This document shows positions 6,611 to 64,000 of a stretch of 64,000 bases of DNA, in pieces. The DNA lies in the NCBI GenBank assembly GCA_030525745.1, contig JAUNED010000002.1, forward strand, positions 46,222 to 110,221. The letters run 5' to 3'. Positions within the stretch are counted from its first letter, which is position 1. Each line of letters starts with the position of its first letter. The position numbers were made by a program, and so were the translations under genes. The notes beneath the pieces are model-generated. The model had not been told where the DNA came from. It saw nothing but the letters and a program-made list of their open reading frames with translations, and searched no databases. Origin of the DNA: Lonepinella koalarum (GTDB lineage: Bacteria > Pseudomonadota > Gammaproteobacteria > Enterobacterales > Pasteurellaceae).

Positions 6611-7465
6611 ATGCATTATTTAATATTAGCTATTTTATGTAGCGTTTCCGTTTCTGTCTTATTTAAATTAACTAAAAAATATCAAATTATCACCGCACAA
6701 ATGATCGCTTTTGGGTATGTTGTCGCATTATCATTGAGCTATTTTTTGCTATCGCCGAATTTTAACGGTTTAACTTTTACAGAATTTTTTGCACAAAGTG
6801 ATGCAAAATCCATTTTTATCAGCTTGGGGATTTTATTACCTGTAGGGTTTCTTGTGATGTCTAAAGCAGTGGAATATGGTGGTATTGTGCGAACAGATGC
6901 AGCACAACGTTTAGCCTTATTCTTACAAATTATTGCTGCTGTAGTCATTTTTGGGGAAACTTTGAGTGATATGCGAATTGCCGGTGTAGTTGTGGCATTT
7001 TTAGCCTTATTTTTCTTATTAAGTAAACCGGCCGGAGCGCTTGAAAATGCTTCTAAAGTTGCTTTAGCTCTTGCCGGTGTGTGGTTAATTTGGGGAACAA
7101 CAGGGATTTTATTTAAGAAAATTGCCTTAATGGGGGGCGTATTCCCAACCACATTATTTATCACCTTTGTATTAGCGGCCATAATTATGTTCATCTATCT
7201 GCTTTTAAAACGTACACAATGGACGATATCCAGCCTTATTGCGGGTATTATTTTAGGCTGTTTAAATTTTGGTAATATTCTTTTTTACATCTATGCTCAT
7301 CAATCCTTCAAAGAAAACCCAACAATTGTATTTGCTACTATGGATCTTGGGGTTATCTGTCTTGGTACATTAGTCGGAGCCGCAATATTTAAAGAAAAAA
7401 TCAGCAAATTTAATGGACTCGGGATTTTATTGGGTCTTATCGCTATTTTATTGTTGCGGGTTTAA
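6611..7465 (+). CDS. Polytopic inner-membrane protein, DMT/EamA-like (about 10 TM segments)
   Basis: 284 aa, very hydrophobic with a two-repeat architecture. RBS GGAGG precedes the ATG. No specific family match is recalled. Confidence 0.5.
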   Translation: MHYLILAILCSVSVSVLFKLTKKYQIITAQMIAFGYVVALSLSYFLLSPNFNGLTFTEFFAQSDAKSIFISLGILLPVGFLVMSKAVEYGGIVRTDAAQRLALFLQIIAAVVIFGETLSDMRIAGVVVAFLALFFLLSKPAGALENASKVALALAGVWLIWGTTGILFKKIALMGGVFPTTLFITFVLAAIIMFIYLLLKRTQWTISSLIAGIILGCLNFGNILFYIYAHQSFKENPTIVFATMDLGVICLGTLVGAAIFKEKISKFNGLGILLGLIAILLLRV

Positions 7466-51527: not shown

Positions 51528-52061
51528 TTAAAAGGTTGAAGTATCTTGGAATAAACCCACTTTTAAATCTGTAGCGGTATAAATGACACGCCCATCAACT
51601 TCTACTTCGCCATCGGCAAGCCCCATCACTAATTTACGGTTAATCACCCGTTTTAAGTGAATACGGTAAACGACTTTTTTAGCCGTCGGTAAAATTTGAC
51701 CGGTAAATTTGACTTCACCTACACCTAATGCTCGACCTTTTCCTTCACCACCGATCCAACCTAAGTAGAATCCGACCAATTGCCACATAGCATCAAGACC
51801 TAAACAACCCGGCATGACAGGATCATTGATAAAGTGACAACCGAAAAAGAATAAATCCGGACGAATATCTAATTCCGCTTCCACATAACCTTTACCGAAT
51901 AAACCACCGGTTTCATTCATCTCAATGATACGATCCATCATCAACATTGTCGGTGCAGGTAATTGAGGGCCTTTCTCCCCAAAGAGTTCGCCACGACCAG
52001 AAGCTAATAAATCCTCATAATCATAGGCATTTTTACGATTCGGAATACAAGTGTTTTGCAT
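51528..52061 (-). CDS. fabA: 3-hydroxydecanoyl-ACP dehydratase/isomerase
   Basis: 177 aa. Nearly collinear with E. coli FabA (…[25 protein letters not shown]……[22 protein letters not shown]…). Confidence 0.95.
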
Positions 52062-52186
52062 TTTTTGTTCTCTGTGTTAAATATCATTTTCTCAAATAGC
52101 CGAATAGCTAAGAGATATAAGCATTTTCACAGAGTTTCACATGGAAGTAAATAGCGAACACTTGTTAGCTAAACTTATCGGATCAG

Positions 52187-53953
52187 TTATTTTTTAGTAA
52201 ACCATTTCAACCAAATCGGTACAGAGGAACGCTCAGCTTCCGAATATTGTTCTATGCGTTTAGAAATCACTTGATTTAATGGTAACTCATTGTTTTTATA
52301 AGATTTACCTTCCTGTTCCAATAAATCACGTTCAAATAAAATCTCACAAGTTTGATGAATATCTTCGACTGCCCAAATAAAAAATTGCTGATTTTCTACC
52401 GCACTTTTAACTTCATCTGTTAGAGATAATTGATGAATAACCGTTGTAGGAATAATCACACCTTGTTTACCCGTCAAACCACGGGATTTACAAATGTCAA
52501 AAAAACCTTCAATTTTGCTGTTTACTCCTCCTACAGAATGAACTAAACCAAATTGATCGATTGTACCCGTAATCGCAATAGATTGCGGTAAGGGTAAATC
52601 AGATAATGCACTGAGCAAGACACAACAGGCGGCCAAAGAAGCACTATCCCCATCAATTTCGCCATAAGACTGTTCAAACACAAGACTTGCAGAAAAAGGT
52701 AATTGAGAGGGAAAATCAAATAAATGAGATAGACAGGCTTGAGCTATCATCATTCCTTTTCCGTGCAAATTACCGGCCAAATCACTTTTTCTTTCAATAT
52801 CTATAACTTCTCCATCACCAAATTGTACAATACAACTCAAACGGGAAGGTTCACCAAAACATACCGGCGTCCCCGGATATTCAATCACAGATAAGCCGTT
52901 AATCTGCCCTACGACTTCACCATCAGTATCAATGTAAATTTGCTCATTTAAAATGTCGCTGTAAGTACGTTCCTGCAAAAAGCCTTGTTGATACTGTTTT
53001 TGCTGAAAAGCTTGCTCAAAATCTACCGCACTTAAGATAGAATTTGGCTGATTAAAGCCTGCCGAACTAATCCAATCCGTTAAAACCCTTGGTGAAATTG
53101 AGACTAAACCACGCTCTTCACTTTCACGAACGAATAATTGATAGAGTTTTTCAATCGCATTTTCGCTTAATGTCAGCTTTTGTTGTTCGCCTAAACATCG
53201 AACATAATTCGCCCAACCTTGCTGATTTTGTTCATTTTCCAAACTGAAATAGCTTTCAATTTCGGCATAATCTGCCCATTGATAAAGCCCTGTTTCCAAC
53301 TCAGAAAAAGTGGCTAACTCTTCTCGATTTCCCAATAAAATGACTTTTAAATTCAATGGAAAAGAGGGAATATCGCAAGGTAACGCCTTAAACGGATGAG
53401 CAGAATACCAATCAAAGTGTTTTGTCATTAAAATGTGTTTTAAACGTTCCCACAAATCAAATTGGCGTAACAATCCTGCAAGGGAGAGAATTAATATACC
53501 GCCATTCACTTGATGCACAAGACCTGAATTTAATTGAATATCTTTTGAACTCGGGTGAATACGGATTGAGCCCAATAATTGATTTTGGTCGAAATATAAT
53601 GCGGTAGCCACCTTTTTTTGAGAGGCAAAATTATCTGCATGAGAGGTCGCAGGTTGAGCCGAAATTTTCGGAAAAGAAAAACTGTCTGCCTGTTCAATCA
53701 AATAATGCACACCAAAAATATCACTCTTTAGTGCTTGATTTAATTCTACAAAATTTTCTACTGCATTAGCATATTCCGCCAAATCATCCACTTTCAACAT
53801 CAATAAAGTGCGGTGTGAATTTTGCAAGAATTGACGAATTGCACTACTCGCCCTTGGTTGTAAATCAAAGAAATTTACAGGTTGAGTAGCCTGAGTAAAT
53901 TCTAGTCTTGGTTGTAATAATTCAGCAGATAAAAGTAATTCAGTTGATCTCAC
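52187..53953 (-). CDS. Lon-like ATP-dependent protease (YcbZ family)
   Basis: 588 aa. C-terminal Lon protease S16 fold. Conserved position next to fabA/matP as E. coli ycbZ. Confidence 0.7.
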   Translation of the reverse strand: MRSTELLLSAELLQPRLEFTQATQPVNFFDLQPRASSAIRQFLQNSHRTLLMLKVDDLAEYANAVENFVELNQALKSDIFGVHYLIEQADSFSFPKISAQPATSHADNFASQKKVATALYFDQNQLLGSIRIHPSSKDIQLNSGLVHQVNGGILILSLAGLLRQFDLWERLKHILMTKHFDWYSAHPFKALPCDIPSFPLNLKVILLGNREELATFSELETGLYQWADYAEIESYFSLENEQNQQGWANYVRCLGEQQKLTLSENAIEKLYQLFVRESEERGLVSISPRVLTDWISSAGFNQPNSILSAVDFEQAFQQKQYQQGFLQERTYSDILNEQIYIDTDGEVVGQINGLSVIEYPGTPVCFGEPSRLSCIVQFGDGEVIDIERKSDLAGNLHGKGMMIAQACLSHLFDFPSQLPFSASLVFEQSYGEIDGDSASLAACCVLLSALSDLPLPQSIAITGTIDQFGLVHSVGGVNSKIEGFFDICKSRGLTGKQGVIIPTTVIHQLSLTDEVKSAVENQQFFIWAVEDIHQTCEILFERDLLEQEGKSYKNNELPLNQVISKRIEQYSEAERSSVPIWLKWFTKK

Positions 53954-54054
53954 GGCTTCATTAAGTCCTTAATTTGAAATTTAATCTATTATCGCACAAA
54001 ATCCATAAAATTCAGTAGAAAAACACAATTAAAAAGCGTATATTTAGGTTATTA

Positions 54055-54067
54055 GTGACAACGTAAC
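54055..54067. promoter_or_regulatory. matS-like site GTGACAACGTAAC (consensus GTGACRNYGTCAC, 1 mismatch) immediately upstream of matP
   Basis: The 13-mer is 15 bp upstream of the matP ATG. Confidence 0.35.
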
Positions 54068-54081
54068 CAAAATAATAAGAA

Positions 54082-54528
54082 ATGAAATACCAAAAATTAG
54101 AAAATCAGGAAAGCCATTGGAAATGGCTTTATCTCACAAAAAAATATCGTGAAGGCGAGCCGATTACCCGCTATGAAGAACGCAGTTTAGCTGAAGATAA
54201 AAGCAAACAATTAATTTTGGCCAAAAATAATCCCACAGAAATAGAACAATGGATTAAAGAACATATGGGCGAATTTTTGGTGGTTAAATTAGATCAAGCA
54301 ATCAGAGCAAGGCGTAAACGTTTTTTCAATGCAGAAAAACAACATACCCGTAAAAAATCCATTAATTTGGATTATGCCGTATGGCAACGGCTTTCACGCT
54401 ACTCACGAAAAATGAATATGACCTTATCGGAAACTATTACTTATATGATTGATGAACGTGAAAGTAAGGTTCTATTTGAAAATCAAATGTCAGCGATGAA
54501 AGCAGGTTTAAAAGATTTATTAAAGTAA
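54082..54528 (+). CDS. matP: Macrodomain Ter protein MatP
   Basis: 148 aa. MKYQKLENQESHWKWLYLTKKYREGE… aligns with E. coli MatP (YcbG). Confidence 0.85.
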   Translation: MKYQKLENQESHWKWLYLTKKYREGEPITRYEERSLAEDKSKQLILAKNNPTEIEQWIKEHMGEFLVVKLDQAIRARRKRFFNAEKQHTRKKSINLDYAVWQRLSRYSRKMNMTLSETITYMIDERESKVLFENQMSAMKAGLKDLLK

Positions 54529-54567
54529 AAACGGCAATTTAAATTCAAATTGCCGTGAATATTCCAG

Positions 54568-55371
54568 TTAAGTGTTAATCATTATTCGAGAAATCCGGCC
54601 TGATTCTATCTCCTCTTCCCGAATAGTCATTACTTCACAGCCGTTATCTGTGACTACAATTTGATGCTCAAACTGTGCGGAATGACTACGATCTTTGGTT
54701 TTCACGGTCCAACCGTCTCCCATCAAACGCACTTCTTTCTTACCGGCATTAATCATAGGCTCAATGGTAAATACCATGCCTTTTTGTAAAATCACACCAC
54801 CGTCATCACCATAGTAATGTAACACTTGAGGCTCACTGTGAAATTGATCACCAATACCATGACCACAGTATTCACGTACCACACTAAAACCTTGTGCCTC
54901 CGTATATTGCTGTACGGCACGACCAATTTCACGCAGACGAATCCCCGGTTTAACTACTCTCAAACCAACATATAACGCCTCTTGAGCTGCTTCCACTAAC
55001 TTTTGGCTACGAATATTGGTTTCACCTACAATAAACATTTTGGAATTATCACCAAAATAACCGTCTTTAATTACCGTCACATCAATATTTAAAATATCGC
55101 CGTTTTTCAACACTTTTTCATCGCTCGGAATACCGTGACAAACCACTTCATTCAGTGAAATACATGTGGCTTTCGGATAACCGTGATAATTCAAGCAAGC
55201 AGGAATCACTTTTTGTTCATTTACCATATAATCGTGGCAAATACGATCCAATTCCCCCGTTGTCACTCCGGCTTTTATATAAGGTTCAATCATGACTAAC
55301 ACATCTGCGGCCAATTTACAGGATTCACGCAATTTAATGAGTTCTTCTTCTGTTCTTAATGGAATTGCCAT
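54568..55371 (-). CDS. map: Methionine aminopeptidase (type I)
   Basis: MAIPLRTEEELIKLRESC…; metal ligands D, D, H, E, E in conserved positions. Start is at MAIPL…; the track's 5-codon extension is rejected. Confidence 0.95.
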   Translation of the reverse strand: MAIPLRTEEELIKLRESCKLAADVLVMIEPYIKAGVTTGELDRICHDYMVNEQKVIPACLNYHGYPKATCISLNEVVCHGIPSDEKVLKNGDILNIDVTVIKDGYFGDNSKMFIVGETNIRSQKLVEAAQEALYVGLRVVKPGIRLREIGRAVQQYTEAQGFSVVREYCGHGIGDQFHSEPQVLHYYGDDGGVILQKGMVFTIEPMINAGKKEVRLMGDGWTVKTKDRSHSAQFEHQIVVTDNGCEVMTIREEEIESGRISRIMINT

Positions 55372-55498
55372 TTTGTTACTCCTCAAAATTTGTCCGTCTA
55401 TGATAACACCAATCCGCCTTTATGTGAAAATATCCTTGAATGAAATAGTCGGTTATTGGATAATAACCCCAATTTTTTATTCTTAATTAGGAAAGTAT

Positions 55499-55840
55499 AT
55501 GTCAGATATTTCAATTCCGTTGAATTTTACAGATGCAGCGGCAAATAAAGTGAAATCCTTAATTAGTGATGAGGAAAATCCTAATTTAAAATTACGGGTT
55601 TATATCACCGGTGGCGGCTGTAGCGGTTTCCAATACGGATTTACCTTTGATGAAAAAATCAATGACGGCGATCTGACTATTGAAAAATTGGGAGTACATT
55701 TAGTTATCGATCCCATGAGCCTACAATATCTTATCGGAGGCACAGTGGATTATACAGAAGGCTTAGACGGCTCTCGCTTCGTTGTACAAAACCCCAATGC
55801 TTCCAGTACCTGTGGATGTGGCTCATCATTTAGCATTTAG
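55499..55840 (+). CDS. erpA: Iron-sulfur cluster insertion protein ErpA (A-type carrier)
   Basis: 113 aa. IscA/HesB family with the three conserved Cys (…GGGCSGF… and C-terminal CGCGSSF). Confidence 0.85.
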
Positions 55841-56035: not shown

Positions 56036-57705
56036 ATGAGCCAACAGCCAACAGCCAACAGCGTGATCTCAACGCTGCCACAAGTCAAGCCTTTTTAAAC
56101 GATCTCGACCAAACCCTTTGGACAGCCGCCGACAAGCTGCGTAAAAACCTAGACGCCGCCAATTACAAACACATCGTTCTTGGCTTTATCTTCTTAAAAT
56201 ACATCTCCGACAGCTTTACCGATTTCCAAGCCAAGCTAAAAACCCAACTCACCACGCCCGAAAGCGAACTCTATCTTGACCCTGCACTATTTGACGCACA
56301 AGAATTTAGCCAAATTCTTGCCGAAGAGTTGGAACAGCGGGATTACTATGCAGCCGAAAACATCTTCTGGGTGCCGGAGCAAGCCCGCTGGGACAACATC
56401 AAATCATTAAGCAAACTCAATCTTGGCGATGAATTGCCTTGGGGAGACAAATTTAAAGGTGTCAGCCGCTTGATTGATGATGCCTTTGAAGCCATCGAGC
56501 GAGAAAACCCCAAACTCAAAGGCGTACTCCAACGCATTGCCGGCTTTGGCGTGCCTGATGAAATGCTCACAGGCTTGATTGACCTGTTCTCACGCACCAA
56601 TTTCACCCAGCCGATGCACAATGGCGAACCCGTCCATCTGCAAGCCAAAGACATTTTGGGACACGTCTATGAATACTTTCTTGGACAATTTGCCCTTGCC
56701 GAAGGCAAAAAAGGCGGTCAATACTTCACGCCCAAATCCATCGTTACCTTAATTGTTGAAATGCTCGAACCCTATTCAGGGCGGATTTACGATCCGGCAA
56801 TGGGCAGCGGTGGATTTTTTGTGCAAGCCGACCGCTTTATTCAGGCTCACGCTGGCAACCGCAACGCCATTTCCGTTTATGGGCAAGAATCCAACCCCAC
56901 CACCCGCAAACTGGCGGTGATGAATATGGCAATTCGTGGCATTCCCTTTGACTTTGGCGACAAACCCGAAGATACCCTGCTCAACCCCCTGCACATCGAC
57001 AGAAAAATGGATGTTGTGATGGCAAATCCGCCCTTTAACCAAAAAGAGTGGTGGAGTGAAAGCCTAGCAAACGACCCACGCTGGGCATACGGCACACCGC
57101 CGCAAGGCAACGCCAACTTTGCGTGGCTGCAACATATGATTTACCACCTCTCCCCCAAAGGCAAAATGGCACTCCTGCTCGCTAACGGCTCAATGAGCAG
57201 CCAAACCTCAGGCGAAGGCGACATTCGCAAAAACATCGTGCAAGCCGACCTTGTCGAAGCGATGATTGCCCTGCCCAATCAGCTATTCACCAACACCCAA
57301 ATCCCTGCCTGCATTTGGATTATCAATAAAGCCAAAGCCAGAAAAGGTGAAGTGCTGTTTATCAACGCCACCCAAATCGGCTATATGAAAGACCGCGTCT
57401 TGCGTGATTTCACCGTTGATGACATCGCCAAAATCAGCGACACCTACCACAACTGGCAAAAACAGAACGGCTACGAAAATATCCCTGCGTTTTGTTATTG
57501 TGCCACGCTGGACGAAATCGCCAAAAACGATTTTGTGCTGACCGCAGGGCGGTATGTCGGTGCGATACAAGAAGAAGATGACGGCGTGCCGTTTGCAGAA
57601 AAAATGCAGGAATTGACTGCTTTATTAAATGAACAATTTAAACAGGGGCAGGAATTGGAACAGCAAATCGTAGAGAATTTAAAGGGATTGGGATATGGCA
57701 TTTAA
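56036..57705 (+). CDS. hsdM: Type I R-M methyltransferase subunit HsdM, interrupted. The ATG frame stops after 20 codons; the conserved HsdM N-terminus continues in the +2 frame (possible phase-variable OFF state or frameshift pseudogene)
   Basis: The ATG at 56036 has a GAGGA SD 8 nt upstream. In its frame MSQQPTANSVISTLPQVKPF is followed by TAA at 56096. The frame that carries LNDLDQTLWTAADKLRKNLDAANYKHIVLGFIFLKYISD…NPPF… (N6-adenine MTase motifs) is open from 56026 to 57705 but has no ATG before 56329. The (CCAACAG)3 tract lies between them. Confidence 0.8.
56039..56061 (+). repeat. Heptanucleotide simple-sequence repeat (AGCCAAC/CCAACAG) x3.3 at codons 2-9 of hsdM
   Basis: Read directly: ag CCAACAG CCAACAG CCAACAG cg. 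Four or one copies would fuse the ATG to the HsdM frame. Confidence 0.75.
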
Positions 57706-58999
57706 TCAGTATGTATTTTCAGATATTGTTGAATTAATATCCGAAAAAGTAAAAATTAAAGACTTAAAAAAAGAAAACTATATTTCGACAGATAATATGC
57801 TGCCTAATTTTGGCGGAATAACACCTGCTGAAAATCTTCCAAATTCAAATTCTTGCAATAGGTTTGCCAAAAAAGACATTTTGTTTTCCAATATAAGAAC
57901 CTACTTTAAAAAAGTTTGGCTTGCTGAATTTTCAGGTGGTTGTTCTCCTGATGTTTTGGTAATGCGTAGTAAAAATACAGATATTTTATTAAATGAGTAT
58001 TTATTTTTACTTATCCGTTCTGATGATTTTATTAACTTTACAGTTATATCAGCAAATGGGGCAAAAATGCCTCGCGGCGATAAAAATGCAATGAAAAATT
58101 TTCTTTTCAATATCCCAAGTATTGAATATCAAAAAAAATGTATTGCCAATTATTTTGCCTTTGACCAAAAAATCCAACTCAACACCCAAACCAACCAAAC
58201 CCTAGAAGCCATTGCACAGGCGATATTCAAAAGCTGGTTTGTGGATTTTGACCCTGTGCGTGCCAAAGCAGCCGCCCTAAGCGAAGGCAAAAGCGAACAC
58301 GAAGCCAACCTTGCGGCAATGTCGGTGATTTGTGGCAAAGACACCAGCGAGTTAAACGACACCGAATACAAAGCGCTTTGGCAAATCGCCGAAGCCTTCC
58401 CAAGTGAGCTTGTGGAAAATGAACAATTTGGCGAAGTGCCGAAGGGGTGGGAAGTGAAGCCGCTAGATAATATTGCCAATTACCAAAATGGTTTGGCTTT
58501 ACAAAAATTCCGACCTGAAAATAATGAGACTTTTTTGCCTGTCGTTAAAATTGCACAATTACGGCAAGGTTATGCAGATGGAGAAGAAAAAGCAAGTGCT
58601 GATATAAAACCTGAATGTATTATTGATAATGGAGATATTATTTTCTCTTGGTCTGGTACCTTAATGGTTGATATATGGTGTGGCGGTAAGGCTGCCTTAA
58701 ATCAGCATTTATTTAAAGTTACATCAAATCATTATCCAAAATGGTTTTATTATCTTTGGACAAAGTACCATTTAGCTGAATTTCAACGAATTGCAGCAGA
58801 TAAAGCAGTAACAATGGGACATATTAAGCGTGAGCATTTATCACAAGCATTGTGTGCTGTGCCTGATGATAATTTTTTAAACTTGTACAACTCTATCAGC
58901 AATGTATTAGATTTAATTATCGCAAATAGAATTGAAAATTTTGATTTAGCTAAAACAAGAGATTTTTTATTACCTAAATTGTTGAGTGGGGAGGTTTAA
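57695..58999 (+). CDS. hsdS: Type I R-M specificity subunit HsdS (two target-recognition domains)
   Basis: 434 aa. Overlaps the hsdM stop by 11 nt. AT-rich TRD1 (about 57700-58150), GC-rich conserved central region (about 58150-58480), AT-rich TRD2. C-terminal conserved LPKLLSGE. Confidence 0.85.
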   Translation: MAFNQYVFSDIVELISEKVKIKDLKKENYISTDNMLPNFGGITPAENLPNSNSCNRFAKKDILFSNIRTYFKKVWLAEFSGGCSPDVLVMRSKNTDILLNEYLFLLIRSDDFINFTVISANGAKMPRGDKNAMKNFLFNIPSIEYQKKCIANYFAFDQKIQLNTQTNQTLEAIAQAIFKSWFVDFDPVRAKAAALSEGKSEHEANLAAMSVICGKDTSELNDTEYKALWQIAEAFPSELVENEQFGEVPKGWEVKPLDNIANYQNGLALQKFRPENNETFLPVVKIAQLRQGYADGEEKASADIKPECIIDNGDIIFSWSGTLMVDIWCGGKAALNQHLFKVTSNHYPKWFYYLWTKYHLAEFQRIAADKAVTMGHIKREHLSQALCAVPDDNFLNLYNSISNVLDLIIANRIENFDLAKTRDFLLPKLLSGEV

Positions 59000-59001
59000 T
59001 T

Positions 59002-59904
59002 ATGAACCAAAAAGAAATCATTAAACAAGAGCAACAAGCATTACTGGAAAATGCTTGCTCGTCTTTACAGCTTGGAATTGATGACTATCTTCTTTCAGAA
59101 GAAAATAAAAATAGAAGATTATCATCTGTTCGTAATTTTATCAGTGGATTATTACTTCTCTATAAATACAAGTTATTTATTGAAAGCAAAGGAGATGACC
59201 CATATGAGTTTATCCGAGCAAGAAGAAATAATAGTACCTCTAGACCAGTACATACTGTTAATGTAAAAGATATCAAGAGCAAACTAAGTTTTCTCAATAT
59301 AACAATCAATGAAAATTTGCTAGATAGTGTAATTTCTGCAAGAAATAACTTAGAACACTTTTTCTTACCAGAAGAAACCAACCCAATAGAGATTATCCAT
59401 CAATCTTATATTTTACTATCTGAATTTTTTATTCAATATTTATCTGAACTAGGGACACTTGAAGAGTTTATATCATCTACATACTATAAAACTCTATTAG
59501 ATATAGATGAAGCATATAAAGAAATAGAAAAGCAGTGCCAAAATAGTTTAAATAAAATTGATGATTATCCTACTTATGATGTTGAAGATGTATTATTAGA
59601 AAATGCAAGATGCCCTTTTTGTAAATCATCGTTAATAAAATATGAAGATGGAAATTACCCAAATTTAAAATTTAGTTGTTATGGGTGTAATAAAGGTAAG
59701 TATCTTGACATTTATGAGTTATTAGGAATTACACATCGTGTTATTCGTCAAGGAGGAGATATTCGTTCAATTTGCTATGATGAAGATTGTGGTGATGTTA
59801 ATGTCATAGATGGGGTTTGTTTTACTTGTGGATACAAACATGACCCAAATAGAGATTATGAAAGTGAAGCTCGTTTAAAGTATTTAGCAAATAAAGATGA
59901 TTAA
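59002..59904 (+). CDS. Uncharacterised 300-aa protein embedded in the R-M operon. Candidate HEPN-like domain (R114-x4-H119: SARNNLEHF) plus a C-terminal double zinc ribbon (CPFC…CYGC, CYDEDC…CFTC)
   Basis: The ATG is 2 nt after the hsdS stop (TAATTATG), so it looks co-transcribed and coupled. Very AT-rich. No Walker motifs. Four CxxC pairs in the last 90 aa. An R-x4-H motif closes an N-terminal helical region. Confidence 0.65.
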   Translation: MNQKEIIKQEQQALLENACSSLQLGIDDYLLSEENKNRRLSSVRNFISGLLLLYKYKLFIESKGDDPYEFIRARRNNSTSRPVHTVNVKDIKSKLSFLNITINENLLDSVISARNNLEHFFLPEETNPIEIIHQSYILLSEFFIQYLSELGTLEEFISSTYYKTLLDIDEAYKEIEKQCQNSLNKIDDYPTYDVEDVLLENARCPFCKSSLIKYEDGNYPNLKFSCYGCNKGKYLDIYELLGITHRVIRQGGDIRSICYDEDCGDVNVIDGVCFTCGYKHDPNRDYESEARLKYLANKDD

Positions 59905-59980
59905 ATCCTTAGGATAATAAATTTCCCATACAATCAATAATCGGTTAAAAAATTAAGAATTTTTCAATTTATAAAATGGG

Positions 59981-60294
59981 TGTACGCAGTACGCCCCTAC
60001 AATCGGAGTTCTAATTTATACATGAGCGAAAATAATGTTCCTTCAGGATTTTAATTTACATTTAAACCAAAATAATGCTCGAATGTAGGGGCGTATGTCA
60101 TACGCCCACAATAACATAAATCCCAACGGATAAACGTGAATAATGTTCCGTTTAAGCGTACGCTGTACGCCCAAACAATCGGGTTTTTAAATTTATATTT
60201 GAGCAAGAATAATGCTCATATGTAGGGGCGTATTGCATACGCCCACAATAACATAAATCCCAGAGGGTAAACCTAAATAAAACATCATGTTCCC
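59981..60294. repeat. Tandem duplication of a roughly 140-bp composite element. Two sub-units (GTACGCnGTACGCCC…AATCGG…GAGC.A.AATAATG.TC and AATAATGCTC..ATGTAGGGGCGTAT..CATACGCCCACAATAACATAAATCCCA..GG.TAAAC)
   Basis: Unit 1 is 59981-60149 and unit 2 is 60156-60294, about 80-90% identical by eye. Each has a perfect palindrome GGGCGTAT-nnn-ATACGCCC (60092-60108 and 60228-60245) and a GTACGC dyad. Unit 2 runs into the brnA 3' end. Confidence 0.6.
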
Positions 60295-60602
60295 GTACGC
60301 TCAGCCTGTTTTAGAAAATCGCTGAGGACTTGATTGATTTTGCTTTGCCAGCCTTTGCCGTAGGCTCTAAAACCTTCTACCACGTTTTTATCCAAACGGA
60401 GGGAGACGGCTTCTTTTTGTGAACCTGTCGGTCTGCCTCGTTTTTTGATGGCGGTAGCAAATTCTGCTGGGCTAACAGGGCGTTCATCTTCATCGATGCC
60501 GTCCCAGACAAAATCTTGATCGTCCGGAATGGCTTTAACGGCGGCGAGCAGCTGTTTTTTGGTTAAGGTTTTATTCGTCAAGGTTTTGTTGTAGGTATTC
60601 AT
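60285..60602 (-). CDS. brnA: BrnA-type antitoxin (BrnT/BrnA type II TA system)
   Basis: 105 aa. Conserved BrnA C-terminal block (…VSLRLDKNVVEGFRAYGKGWQSKINQVL…). Overlaps the upstream brnT by about 30 nt. Confidence 0.75.
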   Translation of the reverse strand: MNTYNKTLTNKTLTKKQLLAAVKAIPDDQDFVWDGIDEDERPVSPAEFATAIKKRGRPTGSQKEAVSLRLDKNVVEGFRAYGKGWQSKINQVLSDFLKQAERTGT

Positions 60603-60864
60603 AATATGCCTCTCTTTCGGCTTTGGACGCTGGGCGAAAACTGATTAATCGAATGCAATTTTCTCGTTCGGTATGGGCTAGGGATAACACCAATAATCGC
60701 CCGAAAGAATAGGCGAATGATTGGGTTCGGACTTCATTATTGCGGATCGTTTCAACATCAAATCGGTAGGGCGAAGATAACACTTCGTCCGCATCGGCAA
60801 AATCTAAACCGTGTTTGGCGAGATTGATTTGACGTTTGTTTTCGTCCCAAATGTAAATTTTCAT
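60571..60864 (-). CDS. brnT: BrnT-type ribonuclease toxin (DUF497)
   Basis: MKIYIWDENKRQINLAKHGLDFADADEVL……RLISFR.A…ER.YYE is the BrnT signature. Start is at the first ATG; the upstream TTG-initiated extension is rejected. Confidence 0.75.
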   Translation of the reverse strand: MKIYIWDENKRQINLAKHGLDFADADEVLSSPYRFDVETIRNNEVRTQSFAYSFGRLLVLSLAHTERENCIRLISFRPASKAEREAYYEYLQQNLDE

Positions 60865-60989
60865 AATTATTGTATATACATAAAATAAATGCAACGACTA
60901 TATTCAACAACCTAACAGAAACAAAATACAAAATCCGATTGGATTGCTATTTTTTCGATCCAGATCCCAAAAATAAAAAAGGACACACT

Positions 60990-63900
60990 ATGCTGATCAA
61001 CGAAAACACCATTGAACAATCCGCCATTGCGACTTTGCAAAGCTTGGGCTGGCAATACACCTACGGCAAAACGATTTTGGCAGGTTTAGAACACGAATGG
61101 CGGGAGCGAACCGCTGAGGTGATTTTAAAGCCGCTACTTGCTGAAGCGATTGCAAAATTCAACCCGAATTTGCCCGCTTGTGAGGTGGAAAATGTGGTGG
61201 CACAGGTGTGCCGTGCCGACAGTGGAGATTTGGTGGAGCGTAACCGTCAGGCTTATGATTGGCTAAGAAATGGGGTCAAAATCACTTATCAGCAAGACGG
61301 CGAGCAGGTGTCTGATGTGGTGCAGCTGATTGATTTTCAGCGTCCAGAAAACAACGATTTTCGCATTGTCAATCAGCTGGATATTGGCGGTAAAAAAGGC
61401 AAACGCATTCCTGATTTGATTGGCTTTGTTAATGGCTTGCCACTGGTGGTATTTGAGCTGAAAAATCCGCTCAAAGAAAATGCCGACATTGGCAAGGCGT
61501 TTGCCCAACTGCAAACCTATAAAGATGAAATTTCTGATTTGTTTGTGTTTAATCAGGCACTCGTGATTTCAGACGGCATTGTCGCCCGTATCGGTTCGCT
61601 GACCGCCGATTTCGACCGTTTTACCCCTTGGCGTGTGGTTGATGAAAAAAATCAGAGCAAACGCATTGTGTTTGAAGATGAACTCACCGCCCTACTGCAA
61701 GGCGTAATGACACCGCAAAATCTGCTGGATTATGTGCAGAATTTTGTGGTGTTTGAACGAGATGGCAAAAACCGCTTGATTAAAAAAATCGGGGCGTATC
61801 ATCAGTTTTATGGCGTGAATGAAGCGGTGGATTGCACCTTGCTTGCCGCCACAGGCAACCGCAAAATCGGTGTGTTTTGGCATACGCAAGGTTCGGGCAA
61901 ATCCCTTTCGATGCTGTTTTATGCCGGCAAAGTATTAAGTCAAGGCTACCTGAAAAACCCGACATTAGTACTCGTTACCGACCGCAACGATTTGGACGGT
62001 CAGCTTTACGCCACTTTTTGCGGTGGTGAGGCACTGCTCAAACAAACGCCAATCCAAGCCGATGGGCGAGACGAACTCCGCTCTGCCCTTGCCAGTCGTT
62101 CAGCAGGCGGTGTGATTTTTACCACCATTCAAAAATTCGGCTTAATGGAGGGCGAGCTTGCCCACCCTGTATTAAACGAGCGGGAAAACATCATTGTGAT
62201 TACCGATGAGGCACACCGCTCGCAATATGGTTTTAGCCAAAAAATCAACCACAAAGGCGAGTATCGTGAGGGGTACGCCAAGCACTTACGCAGTGCATTG
62301 CCGAATGCGTCCTTTATTGGTTTTACCGGCACGCCGATTGCCCTTGATGACAAAGATACCCAAGAAGTCTTCGGTAAATATGTCTCGATTTATGACTTTG
62401 AAGATGCGGTGGAAGATGGGGCAACCGTGCCGATTATTTATGAGCCACGCCAAATCAGCTTAGGCGAAAGTGGCGAGTTTTCCAAAGTGATGGAAGAGGC
62501 ACAACAACTGATTGATGACGATGAAAACAGCTATAACTTCCGCCTGCGTGAAAAACTGCACAGCGTGGATAGCCGTTTGCAGAAAATGGCGGAAGATATT
62601 ATTGCCCATTACGATGAGCGTACCAAACAGCAAGACGGCAAGGCGATGGTTGTGGTGATGAGCCGTGCCATTTGCGTCAAACTCTACGACAAAATCACCG
62701 CACTTCGCCCCGAATGGCACTCAAACGATGTGCTTCAAGGCAGCATTAAAATTGTGATGACAAGCAATGCCAGCGACCCTGCCGAGTGGCAAATACATAA
62801 TCAGGACAAAAAAACCTTAGAAAAACGCTTTAAAGACCCAGACGATCCACTCAAAATCGTGATTGTGCGGGATATGTGGCTGACAGGGTTTGATGCCCCT
62901 TGTTGTAACACAATGTATATTGATAAACCAATGAGCGGACACAACCTGATGCAGGCAATCGCTCGGGTCAATCGGGTATTTCGCAATAAAAGCCGTGAAA
63001 ATGGCGGCTTGATTGTGGATTATGTCGGCTTGACCGATGAGCTGGAAAAAGCGATGAAGCAATACACCAACGCAGGCGGCAAAGAAAAGCCGGTGCGAGA
63101 CATTTCAGCGGTGCTGGAAAAAATGGTGGAACACATCACGGTCATTCGTGGGCAATTTGCCACGCCGATTGACGGACAAGCGGTTGATATTGCCAAAATT
63201 TTGCAAATCAGCGAACCTGCCAAACTGCTCAATGCGATTTTGACATCAGCCAACCATATTCTTGCCCTAGACCGCATTCAGCCAACCGATAACACTGCCA
63301 AAGACAAAACCCCACGCAAAAGCGCTTTTTTACAGTCGGTACGCTTGGCGAAAAAAGGTTATGCTTTGTGTGGGGCAATGAAAGCAGTTGAGCCCTATAA
63401 ACAGGAATTGGCGTTTTATGATGCGGTGCGTGCCACCATCATCAAAAACAGCGCCTCCCCCCGCAATCCTTCGGGTGAAGACCGCTTGTTGCAACTTACC
63501 GCCTTGATGAACCGTGCAGTACAGTCGGACGGCGTGGTGGATTTATTTGATTTGCTGAAAAAAGACCGCCCAAACATCAACCTGCTTTCCGATGAGTTTT
63601 TGGAAACAGTGAAAAACAGCCCAACCAAAGATTTGTGGCTGTCGGCAATGGAGCGTTATCTTGCTGCCAAACTGCGTGAACAAAGCGGTGCCAATCTTGC
63701 CACCAAAAAAGCATTTGAACAAAAACTCAAAGAGGCGATGAACCAATACCACAACCACAATTTAAGCGTATTGGAAATTTTAGAAGAGCTGATCGCCCTT
63801 GCCAAAGAGTTTGAAGCCCGCCAAAAACGAGGGGAAGCGTTGGGACTAAGCCCTGCGGAAATGGCGTTTTATGATGCTTTAGCACGCAACGAAAGTGCGG

Positions 63901-64000
63901 TGCGGGAAATGGGCGATGAAGTGTTGATGAACCTTGCCAAAGACATCACCGACAAATTACGCAAATCCGTCACCGTAGATTGGCAATATAAAGACTCGGT
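60990..64000 (+). CDS. hsdR: Type I R-M restriction subunit HsdR, 3'-partial (runs off the window; hand-translated, so absent from the ORF track)
   Basis: The ATG at 60990 has an AGGA SD 6 nt upstream. The open frame runs to the window end (1003 codons). It carries an N-terminal PD-(D/E)XK region (…VVFELKNP…), SF2 helicase motifs (WHTQGSGKSLSM, VITDEAHRSQ, GFTGTP) and GC-rich codon usage like hsdM. Confidence 0.9.
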   Translation, partial: MLINENTIEQSAIATLQSLGWQYTYGKTILAGLEHEWRERTAEVILKPLLAEAIAKFNPNLPACEVENVVAQVCRADSGDLVERNRQAYDWLRNGVKITYQQDGEQVSDVVQLIDFQRPENNDFRIVNQLDIGGKKGKRIPDLIGFVNGLPLVVFELKNPLKENADIGKAFAQLQTYKDEISDLFVFNQALVISDGIVARIGSLTADFDRFTPWRVVDEKNQSKRIVFEDELTALLQGVMTPQNLLDYVQNFVVFERDGKNRLIKKIGAYHQFYGVNEAVDCTLLAATGNRKIGVFWHTQGSGKSLSMLFYAGKVLSQGYLKNPTLVLVTDRNDLDGQLYATFCGGEALLKQTPIQADGRDELRSALASRSAGGVIFTTIQKFGLMEGELAHPVLNERENIIVITDEAHRSQYGFSQKINHKGEYREGYAKHLRSALPNASFIGFTGTPIALDDKDTQEVFGKYVSIYDFEDAVEDGATVPIIYEPRQISLGESGEFSKVMEEAQQLIDDDENSYNFRLREKLHSVDSRLQKMAEDIIAHYDERTKQQDGKAMVVVMSRAICVKLYDKITALRPEWHSNDVLQGSIKIVMTSNASDPAEWQIHNQDKKTLEKRFKDPDDPLKIVIVRDMWLTGFDAPCCNTMYIDKPMSGHNLMQAIARVNRVFRNKSRENGGLIVDYVGLTDELEKAMKQYTNAGGKEKPVRDISAVLEKMVEHITVIRGQFATPIDGQAVDIAKILQISEPAKLLNAILTSANHILALDRIQPTDNTAKDKTPRKSAFLQSVRLAKKGYALCGAMKAVEPYKQELAFYDAVRATIIKNSASPRNPSGEDRLLQLTALMNRAVQSDGVVDLFDLLKKDRPNINLLSDEFLETVKNSPTKDLWLSAMERYLAAKLREQSGANLATKKAFEQKLKEAMNQYHNHNLSVLEILEELIALAKEFEARQKRGEALGLSPAEMAFYDALARNESAVREMGDEVLMNLAKDITDKLRKSVTVDWQYKDS

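Follow-up and report, generated by a model that had tools for sequence, protein, structure and literature searches.

In the prr locus the genes are ordered hsdM-hsdS-prrC-hsdR. prrC lies within hsdMSR, the genes of a type I restriction-modification (R-M) system (PMC3710099), and PrrC is described as almost exclusively R-M-embedded (10.1101/2024.01.29.577857). Another defence protein, HEC-08, alone protects E. coli MG1655 deltaRM, and the change H128A in its Rx4-6H motif abolishes defence (10.1101/2024.01.29.577857). Here we describe a gene that occupies the prrC-like position between hsdS and hsdR in a 64,000-nucleotide (nt) stretch of DNA from Lonepinella koalarum, referred to below as the window and taken from a metagenome-assembled genome (MAG). 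We found that its product is a predicted HEPN and zinc-ribbon protein that belongs to a family of computational defence candidates and that appears, from profile alignments, to be related to HEC-08 over its full length.

An association of HEPN domains with R-M systems has been described before. Anantharaman et al. 2013 (PMC3710099) reasoned by analogy with PrrC and proposed that at least 16 R-M-linked HEPN clades target RNA as a second line of defence. One HEPN family, EC042_2821, overlaps DUF3644, has a conserved Rx4-6H motif, is fused to zinc ribbons in some members and is found in R-M operons (PMC3710099). According to the same work, HEPN domains linked to R-M do not occur as fusions to methylases, and some HEPN domains, for example MtlR, are non-catalytic regulators (PMC3710099). 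More defence candidates have come from gene position: 145 'PDC' candidates were drawn from genes lying inside BREX, DISARM and type I R-M systems and were placed in PADLOC (Payne et al. 2024, bioRxiv 10.1101/2024.01.29.577857).

The gene in the window and its parts are as follows.

59002..59904, plus strand: HEPN and double zinc-ribbon gene, 300 amino acids (aa), member of the PADLOC family PDC-S64 (open reading frame (ORF) and PADLOC match)
58988..58994, plus strand: Shine-Dalgarno sequence GGGGAGG of this gene, within the 3' end of hsdS and 7 nt before the ATG at 59002 (direct sequence)
59002..59439, plus strand: predicted HEPN domain, residues ~1-146 (helices 3-31, 38-61, 88-97, 104-120 and 129-146)
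59341..59358, plus strand: predicted catalytic motif Rx4H, R114-N115-N116-L117-E118-H119 (conservation and register with HEC-08)
59611..59688, plus strand: predicted zinc ribbon 1, C204-x2-C207 ... C226-x2-C229 (conserved cysteines and model strands)
59773..59829, plus strand: predicted zinc ribbon 2, C258-x4-C263 ... C273-x2-C276 (conserved cysteines and a weak eL37 profile match)

The protein is predicted to have an N-terminal HEPN domain followed by two Cys4 zinc ribbons. The AlphaFold2 model of the 300-aa protein, made from an alignment of 136 sequences, had a predicted local distance difference test (pLDDT) score of 94.5 and a predicted template modelling (pTM) score of 0.87. In this model the sequence A113-R114-N115-N116-L117-E118-H119 closes helix 104-120 of an all-helical N-terminal domain. 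Further helices continue to residue 201 and are followed by short strands of the zinc-ribbon type, with strands 212-216 and 223-226 in ribbon 1. The domain has the alpha-helical bundle fold of the HEPN superfamily and an Rx4-6H motif with a polar residue after the arginine (R114-N115-x-x-E118-H119). Each ribbon has the two conserved CxxC-type knuckles and the beta hairpins of Cys4 zinc ribbons.

We assessed conservation in 136 homologues. One of them shares 80% identity with the window protein and the others share 22-43%. Thirteen residues are invariant (R44, G49, L52, K55, L58, T85, R114, E118, H119, C204, C207, C226 and C229) and ten more are at least 90% conserved (N17, A18, D28, R38, N45, N115, C258, C263, C273 and C276). 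Because R114, E118, H119 and the ribbon cysteines are conserved in these homologues, the Rx4H and cysteine motifs are not a chance match. Based on the motif and on the H128A result with HEC-08, the HEPN domain would be a metal-independent endoribonuclease. The first knuckle of ribbon 2 is Cx4C in the window protein and CPxC in most relatives. Most family members also have a third C-terminal CxxC...CxxC ribbon, and in the window protein and its closest relatives this ribbon is replaced by a helix (residues 286-299).

Much of this had been seen in an initial annotation of the locus. The 300-aa ORF between hsdS and hsdR, its start adjoining the hsdS stop, was confirmed, as was the ARNNLEH motif at the end of a helical N-terminal region, for which the fold model now indicates HEPN. 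R114 and H119, whose conservation had been named as a check, both proved invariant. There is no ATP-binding cassette (ABC) ATPase head, as had been noted: the window protein has no GxxxxGK[ST] P-loop and matched no ATPase family in Pfam, NCBIfam or PADLOC scans. The position of the gene does correspond to that of prrC. The description of two CxxC...CxxC ribbons was right for ribbon 1 and needs amending for the Cx4C knuckle of ribbon 2.

Pfam, NCBIfam and PHROGs scans of the window protein alone gave noise only (DpnI, 0.074; Lar, 0.25; CD1108, 0.044). Pfam zinc-ribbon families, chiefly DZR, matched 36 of the 136 members, and the family profile matched the eL37 zinc ribbon weakly (best E 6.5e-4). 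Sequence searches of the PDB gave only zinc-ribbon-level matches, to eL37 and eS31. Foldseek found nothing in the PDB at E <= 0.001; most of the top ranks went to 3mfn and HEPN toxin entries, with unrelated helical proteins among them. The predicted structure resembles SO_3166, as does the HEC-08 structure, and AbiV and HepS were lower-placed entries in the comparison.

We found that the window protein is a full-length member of PDC-S64. It matched the PADLOC model PDLC05058 with an E value of 6.6e-89 (296.6 bits; residues 9-300 against positions 5-305 of the 305 in the profile), and distant homologues match the same PDC-S64 model. PDC-S64 is evidently one of the 145 candidates nominated for their embedding, and the window gene is itself embedded in a type I R-M system (hsdM-hsdS-gene-hsdR). 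The name PDC-S64 did not turn up in the portions of the literature that are open to full-text search or in the supplementary tables that could be obtained. Similarly, the accessible portions of the text and supplementary files of Payne et al. 2024 give no phenotype, domain description or mechanism for it.

The family is large. A word-indexed homologue search returned 3 relatives only. An exhaustive HMMER search, with homologues clustered at 50% identity, returned 868 clusters at E <= 1e-3 and 263 at E <= 1e-30; nearly all of the 868 cluster homologues are 300-330 aa long, are matched over their full length and have the same architecture. A protein identical to that of the window is recorded from a Lonepinella koalarum MAG, and a copy that is 79% identical is present in another sample. 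Family members are also found on 12 conjugative or mobilizable plasmids, all annotated as hypothetical. A phage origin was ruled out, with 0 matches in 50,697 phage records.

Profile alignment indicates that the window protein is a remote, full-length homologue of the validated defence protein HEC-08, and that it lies outside direct HEC-08/DUF3644 membership. HEC-08 is from E. coli ECOR52 (WP_001313577.1; sequence from Table S2 of Payne et al.) and consists of a DUF3644 HEPN domain and C-terminal zinc fingers. Its sequence matches a second PDC-S64 model, PDLC05059, at 3.3e-8. The PDC-S64 family profile aligned with the HEC-08 sequence at 89.5% probability, with the RN..H motif in register (R123...H128). 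When the PDC-S64 profile was aligned by hhalign with a HEC-08 family profile (built from a 39-sequence alignment), the probability was 96.6% (E 5e-10) over 277 columns, and both the motif and the ribbon cysteines were paired. Pfam DUF3644 was reached by 4 of the 136 relatives, weakly (E 0.003).

These results overturn one statement of the initial annotation, that no known family has this architecture. The protein belongs to PDC-S64 over its full length, HEC-08 appears to be a remote homologue, and HEPN domains with zinc ribbons in R-M operons were published in 2013.

While comparing families we saw that many HEC-08-family proteins (P0154-P0270) are named 'hsdR' in NCBI and UniRef. These proteins are HEPN and zinc-ribbon proteins of ~366 aa that have no helicase or restriction domains. 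The name looks like a propagated misannotation.

The gene shares one operon with hsdM and hsdS. The R-M genes around it are as follows.

56036..56059, plus strand: hsdM start codon and repeat tract, ATG at 56036 and then AGCCAAC x3 (direct sequence)
56038..57705, plus strand: hsdM, type I R-M methyltransferase subunit (Pfam N6_Mtase 2.8e-114, and HsdM_N)
57695..58999, plus strand: hsdS, type I specificity subunit (Pfam Methylase_S 3.2e-20)
60990..64000, plus strand, running past the end of the window: hsdR, type I restriction subunit with a HindI-like C-terminus (Pfam HSDR_N, SWI2_SNF2, T1R_D3-like and T1RH-like_C)

hsdS overlaps the 3' end of hsdM by 11 nt. The hsdS stop codon (TAA) is at 58997-58999 and the ATG of the HEPN gene is 2 nt further on, at 59002. 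Because stop and ATG are adjacent and a Shine-Dalgarno sequence is present at 58988-58994, hsdS and the HEPN gene are plausibly coupled in translation. Scans for promoters and terminators gave counts at or below those expected from shuffled sequence.

The operon appears to be phase-variable. The hsdM ATG at 56036 is out of frame with the body of hsdM when three copies of AGCCAAC are present, and four copies would restore the frame. The frame of this ATG stops at ~56096. The body of hsdM is open in the frame of 56038, where the first in-frame start is TTG at 56329. That is, hsdM in the window reads as a phase-OFF gene or as a decayed phase-variable tract. In the orthologous operons of loci L001, L002 and L003 the same place is occupied by pentamer tracts, (CGACA)n, (CAGCA)n and (CACAG)n. 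The positions are:

Window, 56036-56100: tract at the start of hsdM
L001, ~6940-7030: tract at the start of hsdM
L002, ~7020-7050: tract at the start of hsdM
L003, ~7030-7065: tract at the start of hsdM

Since there are repeat tracts at the start of hsdM in all four operons, these are predicted to be phase-variable type I systems.

Type I R-M genes are neighbours of the family in only a minority of loci. We sampled genomic context with a search alignment of 26 sequences and one genome per species. This returned 80 loci, of which 79 were scored, from Gammaproteobacteria, Cyanobacteria, Verrucomicrobiota, Bacteroidota, Desulfobacterota and others. Type I genes were scored with our own ORF calls and iterated HsdM, HsdS and HsdR profiles. 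The gene was embedded between hsdS and hsdR in 5 of the 79 loci: L001 (Haemophilus parainfluenzae), L002 (Moraxella pluranimalium), L003 (Actinobacillus minor), and L037 and L057 (both Verrucomicrobia). The layout of the window was seen additionally in L084. A type I gene was present within 10 kb in 11 of the 79. When the adjacent genes were scanned independently with Pfam and PADLOC, HsdS was upstream in 4 of 78 cases and HsdR downstream in 2 of 76. The remaining neighbours were mixed, and included housekeeping genes, integrases, transposases, PemK, Xre-ParS, AbiH and AbiLi/AriA-like genes. When the neighbours within two genes on either side were clustered across the 79 loci, no conserved partner or antitoxin was found, and the only clusters that crossed phyla were HsdR and HsdM. 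The family is thus mostly an autonomous, mobile single gene, and its link to type I systems is confined to a minority of loci. By judgement, with no background rate computed, we expect that this linkage is far above chance.

The window protein belongs to a part of the family in which the linkage is strict. In a neighbour-joining tree, eight short, two-ribbon forms make a deep sub-clade (the window protein, P0002, the proteins of L001-L003, P0012, P0026 and P0066). The sub-clade gene follows hsdS in all six cases that are readable: the window, L001-L003, L084 (P0012) and L085 (P0026). Compared with L001-L003, the window HsdM is 71-73% identical and HsdR 60-66%, whereas the HEPN protein is 38-41% and HsdS 33-35% identical. 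Because the flanking HsdM and HsdR are orthologous and the embedded protein is far more diverged, the comparison points to one old insertion that may have been inherited with the operon and has evolved fast. Base composition has a similar pattern. The GC content is 48.9% for hsdM, 47.7% for hsdR, 35.1% for hsdS and 28.9% for the HEPN gene (16.6% at third codon positions), relative to 37.9% for the window, and the same mosaic is present in L001-L003, L037 and L057. Together, hsdS and the HEPN gene behave like a cassette of their own that evolves fast.

The hsdM and hsdR genes that flank P0012 are split in one assembly and are uncalled in another, and the HEPN gene is intact. We take this as a sign that the R-M genes have frameshifts, are phase-OFF or are decaying. 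The split calls are:

L083, 4001-5703 and 7891-11434: split hsdM and hsdR calls
L084, 2213-3734 and 5947-9182: split hsdM and hsdR calls

In-frame fusions of HsdM to a HEPN and zinc-ribbon module occur in a second clade. There are three, P0056, P0091 and a partial P0094; they are mutually divergent and have a conserved junction. The two fusion genes for which we give coordinates are:

L081, 8001-10208: HsdM-HEPN fusion gene, complete HsdM and HEPN-zinc-ribbon
L082, 4896-7091: HsdM-HEPN fusion gene, complete HsdM and HEPN-zinc-ribbon

The P0056 and P0091 fusions are in type I loci that have a separate hsdM and hsdS; L081 also has hsdR, and the contig of L082 ends just past hsdS. These fusions contradict the statement of 2013 that R-M-linked HEPN domains are not fused to methylases (PMC3710099).

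The explanation that we favor, and consider probable, is that the gene encodes an autonomous, HEC-08-like HEPN RNase effector that is inherited together with a phase-variable type I R-M operon and is probably regulated with it. We read the effector as autonomous because there is no conserved neighbour in the 79 loci and because HEC-08 defends a host from which R-M has been deleted. It would probably be a single-protein anti-phage effector, in which a HEPN dimer brings two Rx4H motifs together, as in other HEPN RNases. The zinc-ribbon module may keep the enzyme inactive, or may target it, until a phage-derived cue is sensed. The activated enzyme would then cut cellular or phage RNA and end the infection in the style of abortive infection or growth arrest. 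In the Pasteurellaceae/Moraxella lineage, the gene would long have been carried between the hsdS and hsdR genes of a HindI-like type I operon, as a cassette that is rich in AT and evolves fast. Its embedding would mainly reflect co-inheritance and joint on/off switching of a DNA-targeting and an RNA-targeting layer, and the R-M complex is probably not needed to control the RNase.

Several points weigh against this explanation. PDC-S64 is a computational defence candidate, nominated by "guilt-by-embedding". For all its members, RNase activity, trigger and target are predictions, and some HEPN domains are non-catalytic binders. The likeness to HEC-08 is distant, with 16% identity between the aligned profiles, and the window protein itself had no match to PADLOC HEC-08/DUF3644 at E <= 10 or to Pfam DUF3644 at E <= 1. 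hsdM is apparently out of frame in this genome, and the operon may be silent. Finally, the placement of the sub-clade gene after hsdS (6/6), together with the HsdM fusions, could mean more than co-regulation.

This last point leads to the alternative that survives best, a guard mechanism like that of PrrC, which the initial annotation had put forward as its hypothesis, with the conjectural label of a retention or anti-anti-restriction module. The HEPN-zinc-ribbon protein would be held latent on HsdM2S1(R), and phage anti-restriction would free the RNase, all without an ABC ATPase head. The gene is in the prrC slot with its start adjoining the hsdS stop, type I genes are the sole neighbours that recur across phyla, and two of the three divergent HsdM fusions are in type I loci. 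In addition, the C-terminal helix that replaces the third ribbon could conceivably dock on the complex, a suggestion that is pure inference from the model. The analogy of R-M-linked HEPN genes to PrrC was proposed in 2013 (PMC3710099), and to that extent the hypothesis was already in print. Despite these points we think a guard unlikely. Recurrence between hsdS and hsdR, which had been named as a check, holds for the sub-clade; across the family, in contrast to PrrC, which is almost exclusively embedded, it is seen in 5 of 79 loci, and 11 have a type I gene within 10 kb. HEC-08, a homologue, is active in a host from which R-M was deleted. The embedding of the sub-clade can be explained by a single ancestral insertion, with HsdM and HsdR orthologous at 60-73%. 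The hsdM slippage repeats of all four orthologous operons are a further difficulty. If the toxin were freed simply by loss of HsdM, every OFF cell would be killed, and the retention of the tracts therefore argues against such a mechanism. We infer one exception: switching OFF might also silence the downstream genes through polarity, so that the toxin is lost together with the operon. Overall, the solo homologues, the R-M-free defence by HEC-08 and the hsdM tracts disfavor a guard for the family, and the constant embedding of the sub-clade, together with what the HsdM fusions hint at, leaves room for one there.

A more specific form of this idea is that the sub-clade protein is a physical accessory subunit of the HindI-like, phase-variable type I complex. 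Docked on HsdM/HsdS, it would be an ATPase-less latent RNase that is fired by anti-restriction attack. The HsdM-HEPN fusions of the other clade would then be 'Rosetta-stone' evidence of contact with HsdM. We consider this reading doubtful. If it were true, the PrrC strategy would have been invented twice, independently, and the rule of no methylase fusions would have an exception.

It is improbable that the gene is an addiction or stabilisation module, or an accessory with no role in defence, that is, a toxin-like protein or an RNA- or DNA-binding regulator that might stabilise the R-M operon or adjust how hsdR or the phase-variable regulon is expressed. Zinc ribbons often bind nucleic acids, some HEPN domains (MtlR) are non-catalytic regulators, the gene lies within a phase-variable operon, and there is a sub-threshold likeness (E 0.25) to the zinc ribbon of the restriction-alleviation protein Lar. 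However, the Lar match is at noise level and is confined to one CxxC knuckle. The catalytic-type R-N-x-x-E-H motif has been kept across the 136 distant homologues, for most homologues there is no R-M system that they could regulate, the family lacks a conserved antitoxin-like partner, and an anti-phage phenotype has been measured for HEC-08.

Least probable of all, and very much so, is that the gene is a decaying or silent passenger, a remnant that has no function in this genome and sits in a switched-off operon: the hsdM ATG is out of frame at three heptamers, a toxin-antitoxin and repeat cassette has been inserted before hsdR, and hsdM and hsdR calls are split in the related operons L083 and L084, but the 300-aa ORF is intact with a strong Shine-Dalgarno sequence and all invariant family residues, other samples contain the identical and 79% identical copies, and a phase-OFF state is reversible by design.

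The cassette just mentioned separates the HEPN gene from hsdR by ~1.08 kb (59905-60989) and contains repeats and a toxin-antitoxin pair, both of which had been reported in the initial annotation and are present.

59977..60245, no strand assigned: palindromic and direct repeats, three copies of GGGCGTA-N4-5-TACGCCC within a 137-nt duplicated unit
60285..60602, minus strand: brnA antitoxin (Pfam BrnA_antitoxin 6.1e-16)
60571..60894, minus strand: brnT ribonuclease toxin (Pfam BrnT_toxin 1.4e-19)

The palindromes are at 59978-59996, 60089-60107 and 60226-60244, inside the 137-nt direct repeat (chance expectation, 0.01), and the repeats fill 59905-60284. The repeat matched no Rfam family and does not recur elsewhere in the window, and the palindromes are absent from 86 related loci. 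In L002, hsdR begins 1 nt past the stop of the HEPN gene. BrnT/BrnA and the palindromes were ruled out as parts of the system: they are absent from the orthologous operons, brnTA is on the opposite strand, and there is no Rfam match. The repeats and brnTA are a secondary inserted cassette.

On the left of the operon (51528-55840), translations alone gave a FabA-like gene, a Lon-like protease, a MatP-like gene, methionine aminopeptidase and an IscA/ErpA-like gene. On this side at least, the R-M operon looks like part of the core genome rather than an obvious mobile island.

If the favored explanation of an autonomous effector is correct, the locus is a further case of a known theme, RNA-targeting HEPN effectors inside DNA-targeting R-M operons. 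What is gained for PDC-S64 is a domain description, candidate catalytic and zinc-binding residues, and a predicted homology link to the validated HEC-08. Two observations go slightly beyond the published work consulted. One is a deep sub-clade that is strictly embedded in orthologous type I operons, all with slippage repeats in hsdM, on the basis of which both layers of defence may be switched jointly. The other is the existence of in-frame HsdM-HEPN fusions. With these two observations, whether R-M controls the RNase becomes directly testable in a small, ATPase-free system.

The window protein can be compared with several described systems. The toxins of HEPN-MNT type II/VII toxin-antitoxin pairs (for example SO_3166, 5yep; 8xdj; 7ae2) lack its zinc-ribbon module, and no MNT nucleotidyltransferase gene adjoins the window gene, whose neighbours are hsdS and, after the insertion, brnA/brnT. 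Of the anticodon nucleases PrrC and RloC, PrrC is, like the predicted HEPN RNase described here, encoded between hsdS and hsdR, and the proposed back-up role is the same. The architecture is the reverse: in PrrC an ABC ATPase (Rad50/SbcC-like) comes first and the HEPN domain last, whereas the window protein has an N-terminal HEPN domain, C-terminal zinc ribbons and no ATPase. It matched no PrrC or RloC model in PADLOC, and its HEPN domain is not C-terminal as in PrrC. PrrC is also almost always embedded, whereas the PDC-S64 family is mostly solo. The EC042_2821 prototype has winged helix-turn-helix (wHTH) and restriction endonuclease (REase) domains, and neither is present in the window protein.

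HEC-08 is the closest tested relative. In both proteins the HEPN domain is N-terminal, contains an R-N-x3-H motif and precedes several ribbons, and both are embedded in another defence system. HEC-08 has four ribbons and the window protein two, and the host systems are Hma of Enterobacteriaceae for HEC-08 and the hsdS-hsdR slot for the window gene. The phenotype of HEC-08 has been measured (H128A), whereas a role in defence is predicted for the window family. Within PDC-S64, the window protein belongs to the short sub-clade that does not have the third zinc ribbon, and is otherwise the same in kind.

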